The notes beneath the pieces were generated by a model. The model was not told where the DNA came from. It was given only the letters and a program-made list of their open reading frames with translations, and did no database searches. From Tepidamorphaceae bacterium (GTDB lineage: Bacteria; Pseudomonadota; Alphaproteobacteria; Rhizobiales; JAKSCL01), in the NCBI GenBank assembly GCA_028289445.1, contig JANQPO010000017.1, positions 479,537-543,536 on the forward strand: 64,000 bases of DNA, given 5' to 3'. Position 1 is the stretch's first letter. The number at the start of each line of letters is the position of its first letter. This document shows positions 46,865 to 53,871 of this stretch, in pieces. The position numbers and the translations under genes were made by a program.

Positions 46865-47317
46865 ATGCCTGCGAGCGGAAAATCTTTCGGCATCCTCCTT
46901 GTTGAGGACGATTCCTTGGATGCGACGCTATTGCAAGGCGCGTTTGAACGCTACGGCGATCTGGTTGACATTCACCATATCGAAAACGGTGAAGAGGCGC
47001 TGGCCCAAATCCGTTTGCTGGTCGACGACGAGGCGACGCGGCGCCCGCATCTCATCATCATCGATGTGAGTCTGCCTGACGTGGACGGGGCCAAACTCTA
47101 TGCGCTTTGCTCGTTCTCGACCGGATCAAGGGGCATACCGATTGTGATCTTCACCGGCGGTGATCACGAGGGACTCGAAGGTTGCGCCGTGTCCGATCCG
47201 CGCACCATCTATATGCGCAAGCCCGACAGCAGCTACGGTTATGAGAAGGCGGCGGATCGCATGCTCTATCACGCCGCCGGCTACATCGCCGAGTCAGGGT
47301 TTCAGCGCGCCGGCTGA
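46865..47317 (+). CDS. Single-domain response regulator (CheY-like receiver), orphan
   Basis: 150 aa. LLVEDD acidic pair, phospho-acceptor in IIIDVSLPDVDG, VIFTG, MRKP lysine. No kinase gene is adjacent. Confidence 0.8.
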   Translation: MPASGKSFGILLVEDDSLDATLLQGAFERYGDLVDIHHIENGEEALAQIRLLVDDEATRRPHLIIIDVSLPDVDGAKLYALCSFSTGSRGIPIVIFTGGDHEGLEGCAVSDPRTIYMRKPDSSYGYEKAADRMLYHAAGYIAESGFQRAG

Positions 47318-47325
47318 GCCAAGCA

Positions 47326-48153
47326 TCACCGCCAAAGAATTGCCCGAACGCCGCTCGTCAAAGCGCCGTCGAATTGTCGACCCTCGTCTCGGCTCCTGAA
47401 GGATCCGATCAGCGTCCGATCACGTCCCAACAAGACAATCTCGCTGCCGCGCAACCGCCAATTGGCGATGCGATCGAGACCGGGCGCCGTGCATCCGGCG
47501 GCACTGGCGGGGCTGGGTCCGTCCCTGGCTCCTGCCGAAAGTGTGATCCGGCATGAGCAATCCGGTGTTCCGTCTGCCAGGCGCCATTCACCAGTCAGCG
47601 GCTTCGCGTTCAGGCTTGTGCGGCGTGCCGCCCTCGCTCGATCCCGTCTGATCGGCGCGGCGACATTGCCGAAGCGCAGGAACTGCCCGCGCCCGCCGCG
47701 CTCGACGGCGATGCGACCGCCCTCGGTCGCGCTACCGGACTGCGCTGCGGCGAACAGCGATCCGCTCGTTGCGCTGCCGCCGCCGCCGGTCGATGTCCCA
47801 GCCAGGGTGCCAGGTGGGCCGCAGGCGGCCACGATGGGTGAATAGCCGCCAATCGGGGCATCGGGATCGACGGGACCCTCCGGCTCGGCGTTGGTAACCG
47901 AGTCCGTTTCGGCGGGTTCCGCACTTGCCGCTTCGGTGCCAGCCGTTACGCCCTCCTGAGCGCCGGCCGTATCATTCGTCGCGGTCGTCTCTGTTTCACC
48001 GGCGGAGGGTGTAGCTGTGGGAGCTGGCGATGTTGTCGGCGCAGGTTCGCCCCTGTTGCCCGGGCGCACATTCGCGCAGGCGGCAAGGGCCGCTGCCAGG
48101 AGAACTACTAAAAGCAGTCGGACATGGTGTCCGGCCGAAGACATCTTGATCAT
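47326..48153 (-). CDS. Lipoprotein with a C-terminal Inh/Omp19-like (protease inhibitor family) domain
   Basis: ORF 47326-48189 trimmed to the ATG at 48153 (alternative 48144). Lipobox LAAC. A low-complexity Pro/Thr/Ala/Glu linker of about 90 aa. The C-terminus GEWRLADGTPDCSCRITLS ... CTAPGLDRIANWRLRGSEIVLLGRDRTLIGSFRS..GRQFDGALTSGVRAILWR parallels Brucella Omp19 as I recall it. Confidence 0.6.
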   Translation of the reverse strand: MIKMSSAGHHVRLLLVVLLAAALAACANVRPGNRGEPAPTTSPAPTATPSAGETETTATNDTAGAQEGVTAGTEAASAEPAETDSVTNAEPEGPVDPDAPIGGYSPIVAACGPPGTLAGTSTGGGGSATSGSLFAAAQSGSATEGGRIAVERGGRGQFLRFGNVAAPIRRDRARAARRTSLNAKPLTGEWRLADGTPDCSCRITLSAGARDGPSPASAAGCTAPGLDRIANWRLRGSEIVLLGRDRTLIGSFRSRDEGRQFDGALTSGVRAILWR

Positions 48154-48397
48154 GGGTTTGCCGCACTCGACCCTGATTCGTTGCCGCATTTAATCCCCGT
48201 TGGGCGTTGAAATGCAATGCGATCAGCAGGTTCCTCGTAAATCTGTGTATTTGCGTTCCCCAAACGATCGGCATGGATGGGGGTGAAATCGGGGGTGTGA
48301 GCTAGCCGACAGGCATGGCGAATTGCCGATGTCTTATTGAACCGGTATTCTCAACGCGGTTTGGCGACGGATGATGCCGTCGAGGAAAAGGATGCCC

Positions 48398-49087
48398 ATG
48401 TCTGTCGATCGCGCTTTTCTCGATCAAAGCGTCTCGCTCGGCGGGTTGCCGGAGGCGCTTCTTGATGAAATTGCCAAGATCGCAAGGGTCGTGCCGCTGC
48501 CGGCCAACAAAGTGCTTTTCGAGACGGGCGATCCCGGCAATGGCTTTTACTCCGTGCTTGAGGGCTCGCTGAAGGTCAGCCTTGTCTCGGTCGAGGGGGT
48601 CGAACAGCTGCTCGCGGTCCTTGGCCCCGGCAATGTTGTCGGTGAATTGGCGATTTTCGACGGGCGACCGCGCTCGGCGACCGTGACGGCGATCAAGGCA
48701 AGCCGGCTTGCGTTCGTCGACCGTATTTCGTTCGAGCGGTTGGCGGAGGACCAACCGGCCATCTATCGCCACATGTTGAAGATTGTCGGTGGCCGGTTGC
48801 GCCACGCCAATGACGTATTCGCCGCCCGCTGTTTCCTGCCGATGAACGGCCGTATCGCTCAAACGCTGCTGCAACTCGCCGACACGTTCGGCAAACCAGT
48901 CGACAACGACCGCATCCTGATCCACTACAAGGTGAGCCAAGCCGATCTTGCCAATATGTCCGGCATGGCGCGCGAGAACGCCAATCGGATCCTCAATATC
49001 TGGAAGCGCGACGGGCTGATTTCCCGTATTAGCGGATACTACTGTATCGAGGATAAGCCGGCGCTAGAGGCCGCGGCGGCGCTTTGA
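48398..49087 (+). CDS. Crp/Fnr family transcriptional regulator
   Basis: ORF 48371-49087. I prefer the ATG at 48398, which follows the aggaaaagga RBS. cNMP-binding fold (GELAIFDGRPRSATVTA) and a C-terminal HTH (SQADLANMSGMARENANRIL). No FNR-type Cys cluster. Confidence 0.8.
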   Translation: MSVDRAFLDQSVSLGGLPEALLDEIAKIARVVPLPANKVLFETGDPGNGFYSVLEGSLKVSLVSVEGVEQLLAVLGPGNVVGELAIFDGRPRSATVTAIKASRLAFVDRISFERLAEDQPAIYRHMLKIVGGRLRHANDVFAARCFLPMNGRIAQTLLQLADTFGKPVDNDRILIHYKVSQADLANMSGMARENANRILNIWKRDGLISRISGYYCIEDKPALEAAAAL

Positions 49088-49097
49088 CCGCTTCGCT

Positions 49098-49922
49098 TTA
49101 GCAGCCGGCGTCGCCGCCAACGTCCATGGTGACCGTGCGGCCGTCGCCGGTCGTCACGATCAACTGGCCTCGCTCGACAGGCAGGCGCAAGCTGCCTTCT
49201 TCAGATGCGCTGGCAAGGTTGATGTCGACGATAGCCTTGACGGCGCCATCGCCGCTTTCAAAAACCTGTAGCGGATATTGACCGAAACCGAGCGGGTCGC
49301 CGCTACTGTCGACGCGCGCCATGGCGACCATTTCGTTCTCGACCAGCACGAACCCGCGGCTGTCACCACCGGCGGCGGCCAGCTCATGGAAGAACAGGAT
49401 GGCGTTTTCATCGTCTGCGCGGGTCAACATGAGGCCGCAGCCACCGGGAAGGCGACGATCGTTAAACGCATAGGTGCCGAGCGCGAGGGACGCGGTCTGA
49501 ACGGGCGTCTCTGCAACGACCGGCTCGATGCGAATGTCCTCGGTCACCACTTTGCGGATGCCGTCGGCTGGCACAAGCGGCTCGGCTTCGGGCGCCAGCG
49601 CCGCGGTCGTTTCAGGTGCGGTGTCCGTTTCCAGTGGCTTTTTCGCTGTCGGTGCAATCGCCCCACCAGCCTCGTCCGGCTTCTTGAACAAGTCGACAAC
49701 GCTGGCAAGAATGTTGCCGGGCGTGATCTCCGCGCTGCTGGTTGCGGCCGCCGTCTCGGTCCGATCCGACCGTGCTTCAAACGGCAGAATAGCGATGATG
49801 CCGGCTGCAATGAACGCCGCCGCGCCGGCGGCGATCGCCCAATCGGCCGGGCGCAGGATGCGCTCTTGCCTATTGCGGTGCTGGTGCATGGCCGAGATAG
49901 TTCTCGCGCGATCGAATTTCAT
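49098..49922 (-). CDS. Hypothetical single-pass membrane protein
   Basis: 274 aa with one TM segment (WAIAAGAAAFIAAGIIAILPF) and an Ala/Pro/Thr/Glu-rich linker. I do not recognise the C-terminal domain of about 130 aa. Ends in ...GGDAGC. Confidence 0.5.
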   Translation of the reverse strand: MKFDRARTISAMHQHRNRQERILRPADWAIAAGAAAFIAAGIIAILPFEARSDRTETAAATSSAEITPGNILASVVDLFKKPDEAGGAIAPTAKKPLETDTAPETTAALAPEAEPLVPADGIRKVVTEDIRIEPVVAETPVQTASLALGTYAFNDRRLPGGCGLMLTRADDENAILFFHELAAAGGDSRGFVLVENEMVAMARVDSSGDPLGFGQYPLQVFESGDGAVKAIVDINLASASEEGSLRLPVERGQLIVTTGDGRTVTMDVGGDAGC

Positions 49923-50124
49923 GCATTCCCCTTAGCCAATGCATCGGTTCCGAATCGTCGCGAAATAACATAATGCAAACATGCGCGGTTCAACAAACCG
50001 AAATGGCCGTTAACATGAACCGCATCCTTGACGGGCTGTGTGGACCGAAATCACGGCGGAAGCATGGCAGTGGGATGCCACGCGGGTGTGACAACGGTTT
50101 GTTTACCATGATGGACAATCCTGC

Positions 50125-50176
50125 GGACTGTCCCGCAGCGTCCCGGGACATCGTCCAGACATCCACCGGACAGTCC
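50125..50176. promoter_or_regulatory. Three GGAC-N(1-3)-GTCC palindromes phased about two helical turns apart
   Basis: ggactgtcc 50125-50133, ggacatcgtcc 50146-50156, ggacagtcc 50168-50176. Centres near 50129, 50151 and 50172. Extra TGGAC at 50041 and 50112. The array ends 6 bp before the activator-like gene ATG. Confidence 0.45.
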
Positions 50177-50181
50177 ATCGC

Positions 50182-51585
50182 ATGTCTCAATTTCTGGTTT
50201 CTCGCCAACGCATAGAGATTGCGCTTGTTGGAGGAAGCGACCGCGAATTCGATGTCTATGGCGATTGGATCGAGCGCAGCTACGGACCGGACGTCGCGCT
50301 GGTGCGCCATGGCGATGGGCGGTCGGCGCGACCATCGGTGGCGGTAGAGATTGCGGCCTTTGTTATCGATCTGAGCACCGCGGATCTTCAGCGTGTCTTG
50401 CGATCGGCGGCCGGACGACCCGTGATCGCCATCGTCGACACTCAGGCGGAGCAGGCGCAGGTTCTCGCAGCCGGTATCGATCCGGTGAGGATTCTGGCCA
50501 AGCCGTTGTCGCGCACCAGATTTGCCGCTTGTCTCGATCCGGTGCTGGCGGTGCCGAAGACATTGACCGGCGACCCGGCTAACGCAGACCTCGGTGTCTC
50601 GTTCGATGTGATGGCCGGCGTATCGCCGGCGTTTGCGACCGTGCTTACGCAGGCGCGTCGCATTGCGCGATCGGACGCCCCAATCTTTTTGTTCGGCGAA
50701 GTGGGCACCGGCAAGGCGGCCTGCGCGCGAGCCATCCATCAAGCGTCCGAGCGCTCGGACCGTCCTTTTGTTTCAGCCGACTGCTCCGTCGCAGATGACG
50801 GTGAGCTTGAGAGTCAGCTCTTCGGTATGGGCGATCCGCAGACCACCCCAGGGGCCTTCGCTGCCGCCGATGGTGGCACGGTTTTTCTCGACAACGTAGA
50901 GGCGTTGCCGACAGAGCTGCAAGGACGACTGCTCCGCACGCTGCTCACCGGCACCGACACAACGCCCGACCGCGAGGCCGAACCAATCGATGCGCGGCTC
51001 ATCTGCGCGACCGCGTGCGATATGCAAGCCGAAGTCGACGCCGGCCGCTTTCGCAGTGACCTTTTTTACCGCCTCTATGTTCTGCCGCTTGGCCTTCCAG
51101 CGTTGCGGGATCATCCGGCGGACATCGCGCCGTTGGCCGAGGCGATGCTGAAAAGTGCGGATGCCACGGCCGGATCGTTGACGCCCGACGTCGAAGAGAC
51201 GCTGCGCGACTATGCGTGGCCGGGCAACGTGCGGGAGCTTGAAGCCGTGGTCCGGCATGTCCTTGCACGCCGAGGGCACGGGCCTGTCACCATGTCCATG
51301 CTACCGACATCCCTATACGGCCCGGCGGGGCTGATCGGCGAGATCGCAGATGACGAGGCCATTCGCCTTCACCCCGACCTCGCCAGCACGATTGCGACGG
51401 CGCTGCGCGATCTAGAGGCTTCCTCGGACGGTATCGCTCCGCTTTGGATTCAGGAGCAGCGCATCATCGAAACGGCGCTTGCGGCTTGCGAGGGCAATGT
51501 CGGAAAGGCCGCCGAGGCGCTGCAAATCAGTCCTTCCACGATCTACAGAAAAATGCAGGCCTGGCAGGACCGCGATACCGCCTGA
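50182..51585 (+). CDS. NtrC/Fis-family enhancer-binding-protein-like regulator with degenerate GAFTGA and Walker B
   Basis: 467 aa. Receiver-like N-terminus, AAA+ core (GEVGTGKAACARAIH, RFRSDLFYRLYV, GNVRELE), and a C-terminal Fis-type HTH (GNVGKAAEALQISPSTIYRKM). GAFAAA replaces GAFTGA (50851-50868). FLDNVE replaces FLDE (Asn at 50893-50895). The start codon is uncertain because no RBS is visible. Confidence 0.75.
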   Translation: MSQFLVSRQRIEIALVGGSDREFDVYGDWIERSYGPDVALVRHGDGRSARPSVAVEIAAFVIDLSTADLQRVLRSAAGRPVIAIVDTQAEQAQVLAAGIDPVRILAKPLSRTRFAACLDPVLAVPKTLTGDPANADLGVSFDVMAGVSPAFATVLTQARRIARSDAPIFLFGEVGTGKAACARAIHQASERSDRPFVSADCSVADDGELESQLFGMGDPQTTPGAFAAADGGTVFLDNVEALPTELQGRLLRTLLTGTDTTPDREAEPIDARLICATACDMQAEVDAGRFRSDLFYRLYVLPLGLPALRDHPADIAPLAEAMLKSADATAGSLTPDVEETLRDYAWPGNVRELEAVVRHVLARRGHGPVTMSMLPTSLYGPAGLIGEIADDEAIRLHPDLASTIATALRDLEASSDGIAPLWIQEQRIIETALAACEGNVGKAAEALQISPSTIYRKMQAWQDRDTA

Positions 51586-51675
51586 TCCCGGTTGCCAGAG
51601 CGGTCTTCCGACTGCGCTTGCCATCACCGCCATGGGCGTGCGAGATGGCTGGTCACGCCTTTACCGGGTTCCCCG

Positions 51676-52560
51676 ATGACCTCTCAAAGCGGCTATATGC
51701 CGGTTCTCGCGGTGGTTCTCGCCATCGCAGTTTTGTCCGTAATGGACGCGATGATCAAAGCCGCTGCCGCGGATTTCGGCACGGCGCAAATCACGTTCTT
51801 GCGTTACGCTTTCGGCTTCGCCATCGCGCTTCCCTTTGCCGTACGCGATTTGCGGCGAGGTCTGTCCAGTCAATCGATCCGCGCCAACAGTCTGCGGGGC
51901 GTGATCGTGGTCTTCACCGCGTTTTCCTTCTTCTTCGCCTTAGGACGCCTGCCGCTTGCTTTTGCCGTTACGCTGGCGTTCACGGCGCCACTGTGGATGG
52001 TCATTTTGTCGCGGCTGATCCTCGGCGAGCCGATTGGCGGTCGCGCGCTCTTGGCGATCGGGCTTGGCTTTTCGGGTGTTCTCGTCATGGTATTCGGGAG
52101 CGGTGGGCACAGCGGCAATCAACCGCTCGATCCGCTTGGCGTTGCCGCCGCACTTGTTGCGTCGATTGGTTATGCCCTGGCGATCGTCTTGTTGCGCCGG
52201 CAATCGGCCCACGACACGATCCCGGTTCTGGTCGTCACCCAGGCTTTCGTGGCGATGATCATCATCGCGCCATTCGGGATTGCGACCTTTACGCCAATCG
52301 GGTTCGAGGCGCTTTTCTGGTTCTTCGTCATCGGTGCGCTTGGAACGTTTGGCCACCTGATCCTGTCTTGGGCATTTAAACAGGCGCCGGCATCGCGCCT
52401 GGCGCCCATCGAATACACCAACTTCTTGTGGGCTGTCGGGCTCGGCTATGTGTTCTTTGCCGAGACCCCGGGCGTGGAGGTGTTCTTCGGCGCTGCGCTC
52501 ATCATCTCCGCCGCGATGATCGTCGCCGCCCAGCCGAAGCCGAAACGGATCGCCGCCTGA
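51676..52560 (+). CDS. DMT superfamily (EamA) transporter
   Basis: ORF 51592-52560 trimmed to the ATG at 51676 (MTSQSGYMPVLAVVLAIAVLSVMDAMIK). Ten hydrophobic segments. Confidence 0.75.
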   Translation: MTSQSGYMPVLAVVLAIAVLSVMDAMIKAAAADFGTAQITFLRYAFGFAIALPFAVRDLRRGLSSQSIRANSLRGVIVVFTAFSFFFALGRLPLAFAVTLAFTAPLWMVILSRLILGEPIGGRALLAIGLGFSGVLVMVFGSGGHSGNQPLDPLGVAAALVASIGYALAIVLLRRQSAHDTIPVLVVTQAFVAMIIIAPFGIATFTPIGFEALFWFFVIGALGTFGHLILSWAFKQAPASRLAPIEYTNFLWAVGLGYVFFAETPGVEVFFGAALIISAAMIVAAQPKPKRIAA

Positions 52561-52602
52561 AGCGGAATAAGTTCAAATCGAGACATCCTCTTCGTTCGTC
52601 AT

Positions 52603-52739
52603 CCCGGTCGCGGTGCAGCACCTTAGTGTTGCGCCGCAGAACCGGGATCGCGTTGTCGATGGCGCAGGTGCCAGATGTCGAACGATCCCGGATCAGCGCA
52701 GCAGCATTTCATGCCGCAGCGCGTCCGGGAAGACGCGCG
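52603..52739. repeat. Two GC-rich imperfect palindromic units (CCCGG...CCGGG type), a second intergenic repeat family
   Basis: Unit 1, 52603-52646: cccggtcgcggtgcagcaccttagtgttgcgccgcagaaccggg. Unit 2, 52687-52739: cccggatcagcgcagcagcatttcatgccgcagcgcgtccggg. Both have CCCGG(T/A) ... GCCGCAG ... CCGGG arms. Confidence 0.5.
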
Positions 52740-52767
52740 AGATGAGCTGACGCCACCTCATTCCGAT

Positions 52768-53871
52768 CTAGAGAAATGGCAAGTCCGCAACCGATGCCGG
52801 GATCGGCCCGTCGGGCGAGTCAATGACAACTCGGGTCCCCGGCTCGGTCAGATCGGTACGCACCAGTCCGATCCCGATGCTGCGCTCAAGACGCGGCGAG
52901 TGAACGATGCTCGACGCATAGCCGACCGTTTCGCCGTCCTGGCTTATTGGCCACTTACGGTCTGTCGCGGCCGCGGGCGCCGTGTCGAGCACTAGGCCAA
53001 CCTGCAGACGCGCCGGGCCGTTCTCAGCGATGCGTTGCAGCGCCGCCTTGCCGATATAATCGGCCGGCGTGTCCAGTGATACGAAGCGGTCTAGGCGAAC
53101 CTCGAACGGATTGGTCGCATCGTCCGTGTCGGAGCCATACGACAACAGCCCGCTTTCAATGCGCTCGATTGCGTTCGGCGCGCCTGGACCGATGTTGAAC
53201 GGCCGACCGGCCTCCATCATGTTCTGCCACAAGGCATCGCCGTGTGAGCCGTCGGTCAGGTAGAGCTCGAAGCCTCCCTGTTTGCTCCAGCCCGAGCGGG
53301 CGAGCACGAGCGGTATGCCGTCGAGATGCGTCTCGGTGAACCAGAACGACTTGAGCGCCCGGATGTCCTCACCGAACAGCGATGCGACCACGTCCTCCGC
53401 CTTCGGGCCCTGAACGGCAAGGGGCGAGACGTCGGGCTCGAAGACCTGGACATCGTAGCCGCGTTCACCGGCGACGGCCCTGGCCCAAAACAAAATGTCA
53501 CTATCGGCGATCGAGAGCCAAAAGCGGTCGTCGGCAAGCTTGAGGAGCACGGGATCGTTGATCAGCGTGCCGTCGTGATCGCACAGCGCCACGTACTTGC
53601 CTTTGCCGACGGCCAGCTTGGTCAGATCGCGCGAACACAAACGTTGAACGAGTGCGAAAGCATCCGGTCCGACGATTTCGACCTGGCGCTCAACGCCCAC
53701 ATCCCAAAGCGCGCAATCATTGATCAGGCGCCAATATTCGGCCAATGCATCGCCGTAGGCGACCGGCAGGACCATGTGATTGTAGACAGAGGCATGCGAC
53801 AGCCCGGCGCGCATGGCCTGTGCGTGAAAGGGCGAAAGGCGCATTCGCGCCCCGAAGGTTAGTTGAACCAT
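52768..53871 (-). CDS. Aminomethyltransferase (GcvT) family protein, DmdA-like tetrahydrofolate-dependent demethylase candidate
   Basis: ORF 52768-53991 trimmed to the ATG at 53871 after the gggagg RBS (367 aa). VYNHMVLPVAYGD ... ALWDVGVERQVEIVGPDA ... LINDPVLLKLADDRFWLSIADSD resembles DMSP demethylase as I recall it. The GcvT fold itself is secure. Confidence 0.75.
   Translation of the reverse strand: MVQLTFGARMRLSPFHAQAMRAGLSHASVYNHMVLPVAYGDALAEYWRLINDCALWDVGVERQVEIVGPDAFALVQRLCSRDLTKLAVGKGKYVALCDHDGTLINDPVLLKLADDRFWLSIADSDILFWARAVAGERGYDVQVFEPDVSPLAVQGPKAEDVVASLFGEDIRALKSFWFTETHLDGIPLVLARSGWSKQGGFELYLTDGSHGDALWQNMMEAGRPFNIGPGAPNAIERIESGLLSYGSDTDDATNPFEVRLDRFVSLDTPADYIGKAALQRIAENGPARLQVGLVLDTAPAAATDRKWPISQDGETVGYASSIVHSPRLERSIGIGLVRTDLTEPGTRVVIDSPDGPIPASVADLPFL

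Follow-up and report, generated by a model that had tools for sequence, protein, structure and literature searches.

Does the gene at positions 50182-51585 (forward strand) of the analyzed window, by which we mean the whole 64,000-nucleotide stretch of DNA, encode an enhancer-binding protein (EBP) that still activates transcription through sigma-54, or has it become a regulator of another kind? Its 467-aa product combines a pseudo-receiver, a degenerate AAA+ module and a Fis-type helix-turn-helix (HTH) domain. The closest named homolog carries the annotation "sigma-54-dependent Fis family transcriptional regulator".

A rare clade of EBP-like regulators with a pseudo-receiver

Pfam searches with the query protein placed a sigma-54 activator domain (Sigma54_activat, PF00158) at residues 145-303 (133.4 bits, E 8.5e-39), AAA_lid_14 at residues 309-378 and HTH_8 at residues 421-461, and the RFRSDLFYRL and GNVRELE motifs were found together with the HTH. 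The AF2 model of the regulator (pLDDT 85.6) has its best full-length structural matches in NtrX, LuxO, NtrC1 and VpsR, and its AAA+ domain reaches TM-scores of 0.8-0.84, normalized to the target, against the AAA+ domains of PspF, FlrC and FleQ. A defense-system identity was also considered and rejected, PADLOC models yielding only generic RtcR/PspF-type AAA-HTH similarity.

Searches of 1.84 billion representatives with a profile placed the regulator in a sharply delimited clade of nine full-length proteins (seven clusters at 50% identity), separate from all other proteins in the search: scores run from 646 to 725 bits among the seven clade representatives and drop to about 376 bits for the next single-domain matches. 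No further members were recovered by a scan of genome contigs, a metagenome scan with the clade profile or the exhaustive profile search. The clade is very rare, and its hosts are poorly characterized alphaproteobacteria.

The pseudo-receiver, spanning residues 11-123 (50212-50550, forward strand), adopts a (beta-alpha)5 fold in the AF2 model and aligns with the receivers of related proteins over 115 columns (hhalign probability 97.1%, E 5e-11); the full-length structural alignments to NtrX, LuxO and NtrC1 also span it. No match to the Pfam Response_reg family (PF00072) was obtained in the query at E<=0.01. Asp63 and Lys107 are conserved, and the acidic Mg2+-binding pair that follows beta1, present as "VEDD" in relatives, is replaced by "VGGS" across the clade (LVGGSDRE in the query). 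The pseudo-receiver would no longer accept phosphate in the canonical way.

Deletion of the sigma-54 contact loop

The original prediction held that the GAFTGA loop had mutated to GAFAAA. The hexapeptide does exist (G224-A229; 50851-50868, forward strand), but alignments to PspF, ZraR, LuxO and the canonical relatives identify it as the G-x-F-E-x-A segment, which sits after the L1 loop and before Walker B: it aligns with PspF G94-R-F-E-R-A99, not with G83-A88, and with "GAAELA" in the canonical relatives. The true GAFTGA has been deleted. PDB alignments to ZraR and LuxO, as well as multiple alignments, identify FGMGDPQTTP (50821-50850, forward strand) as the L1 loop remnant, with a six-residue gap in place of GAFTGA. 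In the PDB alignment, ZraR "ELFGHEKGAFTGADKRREGRF" pairs with "QLFG------MGDPQTTPGAF" in the query, and the multiple alignments put the same six-residue gap as "FGMGDP------QTTPGAF", at the junction of P219 and Q220 (50838/50839).

The gap in L1 measures 6-12 residues across the clade, affecting all nine members, and none of the nine retains GAFTGA; the L2 loop of the regulator is degenerate. Because the GAFTGA loop itself is deleted, the protein has no functional sigma-54 contact loop and almost certainly cannot engage sigma-54, a claim for which the clade-wide deletion makes a stronger case than the one first stated.

Catalytic residues are lost throughout the clade

Nucleotide-site residues, all encoded on the forward strand, were assigned by alignment against PspF, the sequence of which was checked to be identical to PDB 2vii_A. 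In Walker B (VFLDN, 50881-50895), Asp237 is kept and the catalytic glutamate (PspF E108) is replaced by Asn238 (50893-50895), which confirms the FLDN reading of the original prediction; the glutamate is missing from every clade member (N, N, N, N, S, Q, R, H and Q). The sensor I asparagine (PspF N149) is likewise lost in all nine, the canonical "ATN" reading "ATA" in the query (Ala278, 51013-51015), and the glutamate-switch position (PspF N64), an Asn in PspF and the canonical relatives alike, is Asp in the entire clade (Asp200 in the query, 50779-50781).

Other elements of the site are retained in the query, including an intact Walker A motif (GEVGTGK, G172-K178; 50695-50715), whose lysine corresponds to PspF K42, the Arg fingers R291 and R297 (PspF R162 and R168; 51052-51072) and the sensor II Arg351 (PspF R227; 51232-51234). 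Since the Walker A Lys, Walker B Asp, Arg fingers and sensor II Arg are all present, the earlier description of this protein as ATP-binding but hydrolysis-dead is reasonable for the query. Each of the two Arg-finger positions is retained in eight of the nine clade members. The Walker A Lys is kept in seven (it is Arg in P0004 and Ile in P0005), the Walker B Asp is lost in four, and the sensor II Arg is lost in six. The nucleotide pocket is therefore not conserved clade-wide, and nucleotide sensing, which had also been put forward, is unlikely to be a conserved function of these proteins. The AAA+ domain is nonetheless still constrained (dN/dS 0.26), which argues that it has some function.

The gene is maintained under purifying selection

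Alignment with EBPs showed that orthologs share the changes: GAFTGA, the Walker B Glu and also the Asn of sensor I are missing from all eight other clade members. These common losses, together with an identical protein sequence in an independent Logan assembly, exclude a sequencing error, and the scenario of canonical orthologs alongside a decaying query is ruled out by the sharing of the losses among all nine members and by purifying selection. Measured against the 83%-identical ortholog L082, dN/dS is 0.20 for the full protein, 0.26 for the AAA+ domain and 0.03-0.04 for the linker and the HTH (0.04 for the HTH), values which show that the gene is maintained under purifying selection and that this selection is strongest on the HTH.

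The Fis-type HTH (HTH_8; 51442-51564, forward strand), identified by its Pfam match and invariant columns, is, together with the "DGIAPLWIQEQRIIE" segment just before it, the best-conserved stretch of the protein, and is near-identical in the canonical GAFTGA-bearing relatives.

A conserved divergent control region and conserved neighbors

The 259-bp divergent intergenic control region (49923-50181) is the most conserved DNA of the locus, being 97.3% identical to that of L082 versus 83.7% for the adjacent coding sequence, and conserved blocks within it persist at loci where protein identity is down to 42-49%. Locus comparison delineated three such blocks: B1 (AAATGGCCGTTAACATGAACC, 50001-50021), B2 (AATCACGGCGGAAGCATGGCAG, 50049-50071) and B3 (GACAACGGTTTGTTTACCATGATGGACAATCCTG, 50090-50125). 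B3 contains the palindrome CAA-N4-TTG and TTTACCATGA, and B1 holds a copy of the KTTAMCATGAW core common to B3. Canonical relatives with an almost identical HTH are likewise preceded, at a distance of 50-150 bp, by the B3 core, TTGTTTACC. CAA-N4-TTG is a low-information motif. Rather than the operator of the regulator, B3 may represent a promoter element or, given the resemblance of TTTACCAT to TTAACCAT, a CtrA-type box.

In agreement with the original prediction, which reported no TGGCAC-N5-TTGC promoter in the flanking intergenic DNA, no similar site with <=2 mismatches was found in 49923-50181 or 51586-51675; the whole window contains 18 such sites, against 26.6 expected. A candidate sigma-54 promoter at 50065 ("TGGCAGTGGGATGCC") was discarded on account of its wrong spacing and its lack of conservation in L083, L084 and L086. 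A scan for E. coli-type sigma-70 promoters, which is not tuned for alphaproteobacteria, found none in the intergenic DNA. For LuxO, whose site we take to be TTGCA-N3-TGCAA, the only candidate was a TGCA-N4-TGCG sequence at ~49973, which is not conserved and was rejected. An upstream open reading frame (uORF) or N-terminal extension was likewise rejected as the source of the conserved blocks: an 80-aa ORF (49973-50215) and a 15-codon uORF change register relative to B1, B2 and B3 in L083, where there is a stop within B2. Rfam returned no structured RNA or sRNA at gathering score for the intergenic region or the rest of the window, and intergenic folding z-scores (-0.44 on the forward strand and +0.11 on the reverse strand) lend no support to a structured RNA.

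Transcribed divergently from the regulator is a partner gene (49098-49922, reverse strand), present in all seven loci for which upstream DNA is available, that encodes a 274-aa protein matching no Pfam family. In the partner protein, a basic N-terminal tail and one transmembrane helix are joined by a low-complexity linker to a C-terminal 8-strand beta domain (AF2 pLDDT ~80), which is conserved and contains the invariant Cys162 and Cys274. For its fold, Foldseek gave only weak matches (E 0.06), with PliC and with the ACP of Neisseria. Homology of the partner to the neighboring Inh-domain protein (47326-48189) was considered and rejected (BLASTP E 2.7). On the other side, 90 nt downstream of the regulator, lies an EamA/DMT-family transporter gene (51676-52560, forward strand; Pfam EamA), which usually follows the regulator, as in L081-L085, among the loci that extend that far. 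No terminator-like site was found in the 90-nt gap, and the EamA gene is probably co-transcribed with the regulator. The neighbors include no histidine-kinase gene, as had been observed at the outset. The pseudo-receiver, the divergent partner gene with the EamA operon downstream, and the conserved putative operator region had not been recognized in the original prediction.

Relationship to known sigma-54-independent EBPs

A class of atypical, sigma-54-independent EBPs has been described, in which VpsR, NtrX, HupR, TyrR, PhhR and GAFTGA-less NtrC proteins are named (PMC6158489, bioRxiv 10.1101/2023.06.06.543975), and the query shares its EBP architecture with an absent or degenerate GAFTGA. 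VpsR, in which GAFTGA is missing and Walker B reads ND, is without ATPase activity and serves as an activator of sigma-70 RNAP (PMC6158489). The combination of a missing GAFTGA with a dead Walker B is thus already documented, and the query is less unusual than the original prediction implied. Both proteins have a REC-AAA+-HTH layout with GAFTGA absent and Walker B degenerate, and VpsR is a structural neighbor of the query (7v2b), but VpsR is not an ortholog and its losses arose independently in a different lineage. Furthermore, VpsR has a recognizable receiver and uses c-di-GMP, whereas the receiver of the query lacks the acidic pair and some members of its clade lack even the Walker A Lys.

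GAFTGA is likewise missing from NtrX, Rhodobacter capsulatus NtrC and Caulobacter NtrC, which act at sigma-70 promoters (bioRxiv 10.1101/2023.06.06.543975). NtrX, known from Brucella, Sinorhizobium and Caulobacter, is the best full-length structural match of the query (5m7n/5m7p, E 2e-26) and autoregulates by binding CAA-N3-5-TTG palindromes in the promoter of its own operon (PMC9223101), a spacing range that includes the CAA-N4-TTG of B3. In contrast to the query, which has a pseudo-receiver and no kinase gene nearby, NtrX is paired with its cognate kinase NtrY, and its receiver can be phosphorylated. The query scores below the NCBIfam cut-offs for NtrX (159 bits; cut-off 600), TyrR (172; 576) and NtrC (189; 559), and does not qualify as an ortholog of any of the three; against the LuxO model (NF041946) it scores 252.8 bits, below the cut-off of 800. 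The R. capsulatus and Caulobacter NtrC proteins are, like the query, alphaproteobacterial EBPs with a deleted L1 loop, but their Walker A and B motifs are intact (and needed by Caulobacter NtrC) and NtrB phosphorylates them.

In sequence, the query is closest to LuxO-like alphaproteobacterial response-regulator EBPs, with which it is 35-46% identical. They share with the query a near-identical HTH (…PLW.QEQRIIE.AL…ISPSTIYRK.Q.W) and the upstream element GGTTTGTTTACC; unlike it, they have GAFTGA or GAFTSA, LNC, DE and ATN motifs and a Pfam-recognizable receiver, and their genomic neighborhood differs (aptA, DUF1304, hisS/hisZ). These canonical relatives possibly belong to the TacA family, a suspicion based on tacA being a direct CtrA target (PMC7010744) and on the resemblance of B3 to a CtrA half-site.

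Probable function of the regulator

On balance, we favor the view that the regulator is a sigma-54-independent, ATP-hydrolysis-dead transcription factor derived from an alphaproteobacterial LuxO-like response-regulator EBP, and we consider this explanation probable. The proposal that it had been repurposed as a DNA-binding regulator is upheld by the HTH being its most constrained part (dN/dS 0.04). Under this explanation, the regulator would bind as a dimer or oligomer to putative sites in the 259-bp intergenic region (B1 and B3), from which it would control sigma-70-type transcription of its own operon, comprising the regulator and EamA genes, and also of the divergent gene for the membrane-anchored partner. 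The AAA+ module would persist as an oligomerization and regulatory scaffold, which in the query may still bind nucleotide, and the input to the pseudo-receiver may be a protein or a ligand.

A refinement that does not contradict this explanation is that the regulator serves as a second-messenger or nucleotide sensor, its dead AAA+ pocket or receiver-AAA+ interface binding ATP or c-di-GMP in the manner of FleQ and VpsR, with the ligand switching DNA binding or RNAP contact. We regard this as conceivable but doubtful. The pocket residues retained in the query would suit such a sensor, as would its structural proximity to VpsR and FleQ, but the Walker A Lys, Walker B Asp and sensor II Arg are lost in two, four and six of the nine clade members, respectively. 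The gene neighborhoods are similarly divided: an EAL-domain gene adjoins the ortholog in L083 and another lies near a Stappia relative, whereas no EAL or GGDEF gene is found within 5 kb of the regulator in the window. In addition, what we take to be the position of the FleQ-type LFRS arginine reads SFDV in the query, which would count against such a sensor.

The near-identity of the HTH to that of GAFTGA-bearing relatives, and the upstream TTGTTTACC they have in common, would also fit a dominant-negative or competitor role, in which the regulator occupies the enhancer sites of a canonical LuxO/TacA-like activator or forms mixed rings with a canonical paralog, blocking sigma-54 activation. The Arg fingers and oligomerization surfaces are largely retained, and repressor forms of NtrC have been cited in the literature. 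The strict association of the regulator with a clade-specific partner gene, and with EamA where the contig reaches, suggests instead a dedicated local regulon, and we give the competitor role a slim chance. It is very unlikely that the regulator remains a sigma-54 activator through an unconventional contact or an ATPase borrowed in hetero-oligomers: against its strong Pfam Sigma54_activat match and retained Arg fingers, which could act in trans, stand the deleted L1 and degenerate L2 loops, the loss of the catalytic Glu and sensor I Asn in all nine members and the absence of a -24/-12 promoter nearby. A decaying pseudogene or sequencing artifact, to which the degeneracy of many catalytic residues might point, is scarcely credible for an intact 467-aa frame with an independent identical copy, nine full-length clade members, conserved synteny and dN/dS values of 0.20 for the whole protein and 0.03-0.04 for the linker and HTH.

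If the regulator is indeed a sigma-54-independent transcription factor, the locus would represent an independent and unusually complete case in which a sigma-54 activator of the AAA+ type has been pared down to a plain DNA-binding regulator. It also shows that a "Sigma-54 interaction domain" annotation cannot serve as evidence of sigma-54 control. Because the canonical relatives keep the same HTH and upstream element, they and the clade form a natural before-and-after pair for asking what an EBP still requires after losing its ATPase activity and its coupling to sigma-54. The practical impact is small, given a very rare clade of nine proteins in poorly characterized alphaproteobacteria.

A more speculative and improbable reading is that the regulator and its partner constitute a new kinase-free transmembrane signaling module, in which the partner would sense an envelope or periplasmic cue, control the pseudo-receiver/AAA+ scaffold via its juxtamembrane tail and thereby tune a regulon of partner, regulator and EamA exporter. 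If so, the module would replace both phosphorylation and ATP hydrolysis. On this reading, the basic tail of the partner would be cytoplasmic, with its single transmembrane helix leading to a PliC/MliC-like beta-barrel in the periplasm that probably contains a disulfide, and its conserved juxtamembrane tail reads R24-P25-x-D27.

Loss of the sigma-54 loop and catalytic residues

The ORF at 50182-51585 (+) encodes a 467-aa regulator resembling sigma-54-activator-type enhancer-binding proteins (EBPs), with Pfam domains Sigma54_activat (residues 145-303, E 8.5e-39), AAA_lid_14 (309-378) and HTH_8 (421-461). No NCBIfam equivalog reached its cut-off, the top score being that of LuxO (252.8 bits, cut-off 800). 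The AF2 model is confident (mean pLDDT 85.6), and its top full-length structural matches are Brucella NtrX (5m7n/5m7p, E 2e-26), LuxO (5ep0), NtrC1 (1ny5) and VpsR (7v2b). In this model, residues 11-123 fold as a (beta-alpha)5 unit that had no match to the Pfam receiver HMM, and that profile-profile comparison aligned with the receivers of canonical, GAFTGA-bearing LuxO-like relatives (97.1% probability, E 5e-11, 115 columns). Asp63 and Lys107 are conserved, and 'VGGS' replaces the acidic pair that follows beta1 (relatives: 'VEDD') throughout a clade of nine such proteins; the N-terminal domain is a pseudo-receiver. Consistent with this, no histidine-kinase gene lies near the regulator, as originally reported.

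The original prediction had taken GAFAAA for a mutated GAFTGA loop and FLDN for a Walker B without its catalytic Glu, and only the second observation stands. Walker B reads V-F-L-D-N, with Asn238 (AAC, 50893-50895) in place of Glu. The hexapeptide is present (G224-A229, 50851-50868), but every alignment places it opposite the G-x-F-E-x-A segment that lies after loop L1 and before Walker B, represented by 'GRFVEA' in ZraR, G94-RFER-A99 in PspF (the numbering reference, verified identical to PDB 2vii_A) and 'GAAELA' in canonical relatives. Equating it with GAFTGA was a mis-homology: at the true position the protein has a six-residue gap, with canonical 'FGHVKGAFTGA…' corresponding to 'FGMGDP------QTTP' and the junction falling between P219 and Q220 (50838/50839).

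The aligned orthologues share both losses, settling the comparison proposed with the original prediction. L1/GAFTGA is deleted in all nine clade proteins (gaps of 6-12 residues), and in PspF numbering all nine have lost the catalytic Glu E108 (N, N, N, N, S, Q, R, H, Q) and the sensor I Asn N149, and carry Asp at the glutamate-switch Asn N64. The Walker B Asp D107 is kept in five of the nine, the Walker A Lys K42 in seven, the Arg fingers R162 and R168 in eight each, and the sensor II Arg R227 in three. The proposal of an ATP-binding, hydrolysis-dead protein is thus upheld in part: nucleotide binding is plausible for the window protein, which retains K178, D237, R291, R297 and R351, but is not conserved across the clade. 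The E108 replacements (N, S, Q, R, H) are all hydrogen-bond donors and might bond to the Asp that now occupies the N64 position (codons 50779-50781 and 50893-50895), an apparent compensatory pair suggesting, from sequence, that the switch has been rewired and permanently locked rather than simply lost.

A class of 'atypical EBPs' is already established. In VpsR, GAFTGA is missing and Walker B has ND; the protein shows no ATPase activity and activates sigma-70 RNAP (PMC6158489); TyrR, HupR, HsfA, PhhR and NtrX are listed in the same paper (PMC6158489). The NtrC proteins of Caulobacter and Rhodobacterales have deletions in L1 and work on sigma-70 promoters, and NtrX is without GAFTGA. We infer that the clade works like VpsR, NtrX and L1-deleted NtrC. 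It is, however, not orthologous to any named atypical EBP, since its NCBIfam scores are far under the cut-offs and it separates in the profile search; it derives independently from alphaproteobacterial response-regulator EBPs of the LuxO-like kind. A relative from Stappia stellulata (P0016, locus L168, 6001-7488) has 'NSATDGA' in place of GAFTGA, an intact Walker B DE and no receiver found by Pfam; its gene lies near an EAL gene and, like the clade, upstream of groES/groEL (by 2.6 kb). It looks like an evolutionary intermediate.

A conserved neighbourhood with a novel membrane protein

Wherever upstream DNA is present (loci L081, L082, L084, L085 and L086, the Rhodobiaceae MAG L083 and the contig of P0009), the regulator is divergently paired with a partner gene (49098-49922, -). 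The partner represents a novel single-pass membrane protein family of about 240-277 aa, with no Pfam match and only six homologues in 5.8 billion proteins. Its N-terminal tail is basic and is followed by one TM helix, a low-complexity linker and a conserved all-beta C-terminal domain of eight strands with invariant Cys162 and Cys274, and it bears an invariant juxtamembrane motif, RP.D; the tail is predicted to be cytoplasmic and the domain periplasmic. Its sole fold matches, which are weak, are PliC and Neisseria ACP, both eight-stranded lysozyme-inhibitor barrels (E 0.06, probability 0.97-0.99). That regulator and partner form a kinase-free membrane-partner signalling module is a speculative proposition to which we attach little weight.

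An EamA transporter gene (51676-52560, +, in the window) lies downstream in L081-L085, where the contig reaches that far, followed by an O-methyltransferase gene and groES/groEL. It starts 90 nt past the regulator stop codon with no terminator-like site in the gap, and the two genes are probably co-transcribed. Upstream of the module are three genes. The first (46865-47317, +) encodes a stand-alone receiver domain and the third (48371-49087, +) a Crp/Fnr-type regulator; the second (47326-48189, -) encodes a protein, secreted or anchored, whose linker is rich in Ala, Pro and Thr and whose C-terminus carries an Inh (protease inhibitor) domain. All three are common to the close relative L082, not to distant clade loci. 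Between EamA and a GcvT-like gene, L082, otherwise collinear, lacks 52560-52770 or cannot be aligned to it (0-26% identity over ~200 nt), indicating a local indel.

A constrained control region and an element shared with canonical relatives

Between the window and L082, identity is 97.3% in the 259-bp divergent intergenic region, as against 83.7% in the regulator CDS, and no other stretch of a 9-kb comparison is as conserved. Identity of 97-99% spans 49900-50300, reaching ~100 nt into the CDS, compared with ~84-92% in coding and 58-85% in other intergenic DNA; neither RNA structure, for which the intergenic region gave no evidence, nor a conserved small ORF explains it. Three blocks, B1 (50001-50021), B2 (50049-50071) and B3 (50090-50125), are kept even where protein identity between loci falls to 42-49%. 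As their registers are not the same from locus to locus, a coding role was rejected. A KTTAMCATGAW core occurs in both B1 and B3, the two copies 93 bp apart, and B3 contains a CAA-N4-TTG palindrome whose arms are kept while the spacer varies between loci.

The B3 core TTGTTTACC was unexpectedly also found 50-150 bp upstream of canonical relatives, as 'GCAACGGTTTGTTTACCATGATTT' in L167 (5930-5965) and '…CAAAGGTTTGTTTACCCTGTTTTGGCA…' in eight metagenome loci. The element GGTTTGTTTACC(A/C)TG with the CAA-N4-TTG palindrome is thus common to the degenerate clade and to GAFTGA-bearing relatives (L167, L090, L093, L094, L096, L098, L099, L102 and L105); 'AAATAGGGC' and 'AACCAGTCCGCGTCGAGGGGTCGCCCGGTAATGG' are common to canonical loci directly before the start codon. 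These relatives have GAFTGA/GAFTSA, LNC, DE, ATN and a recognisable receiver, so the core predates the loss of sigma-54 coupling. By analogy with NtrX, which autoregulates via CAA-N3-5-TTG (PMC9223101), it could be an autoregulatory operator of the family; alternatively, it may be a promoter element or CtrA-type box, TTAACCAT being a documented CtrA motif (PMC6180460) and Caulobacter tacA a direct CtrA target (PMC7010744).

Proposed mechanism and alternatives

Selection on the regulator gene, estimated against the 83%-identical L082 orthologue (dS 0.50), is purifying and centred on the HTH, with dN/dS of 0.20 overall, 0.21 in the pseudo-receiver, 0.26 in AAA+, 0.03 in the linker and 0.04 in the HTH. 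Together with the lost loop and catalytic residues, the pseudo-receiver, the conserved neighbourhood and the constrained control region, this leads us to favour, with reasonable though not high confidence, a sigma-54-independent, hydrolysis-dead DNA-binding regulator. It would bind putative sites within 49923-50181 and control both the partner gene and the operon that it shares with the EamA transporter gene, its AAA+ domain presumably retained as an oligomerisation and regulatory scaffold.

A ligand-sensing variant of this regulator is conceivable but rather unlikely. The C-terminus 'DGIAPLW.QEQRIIE.ALAAC.G.VGKAAEALQISPSTIYRKMQ.W' is almost invariant and the HTH region of canonical relatives is near-identical to it; action as a competitor or dominant-negative of a canonical paralogue seems somewhat less probable still. 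Residual sigma-54 activity is very improbable: the intergenic DNA flanking the regulator has no -24/-12 consensus, a scan that bears out the earlier failure to find TGGCAC-N5-TTGC there, and the whole window holds 18 near-matches, fewer than shuffled sequence (26.6).

A pseudogene or sequencing artefact, to which we give practically no credence, was ruled out by purifying selection, by degeneracy common to all nine clade proteins and by an identical, independent copy. This copy emerged from a search of 5.8 billion proteins, which found the same protein in NCBI and in an independent Logan assembly, along with eight full-length relatives (P0002 at 83% identity, P0003-P0009 at 42-49%). When 1.84 billion cluster representatives were searched exhaustively with a profile, only the seven known clade representatives came back (646-725 bits) before single-domain matches dropped to ~376 bits, and a metagenome scan with the clade profile returned canonical relatives only. 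The clade is a genuine and very rare group with sharp limits. Ordinary single-domain EBPs were outscored in the profile search by P0127-P0135, polypeptides of 620-1027 aa in which an EBP-type AAA+ stretch occurs two or three times at separate places, and which may be tandem-AAA+ EBPs or gene fusions.
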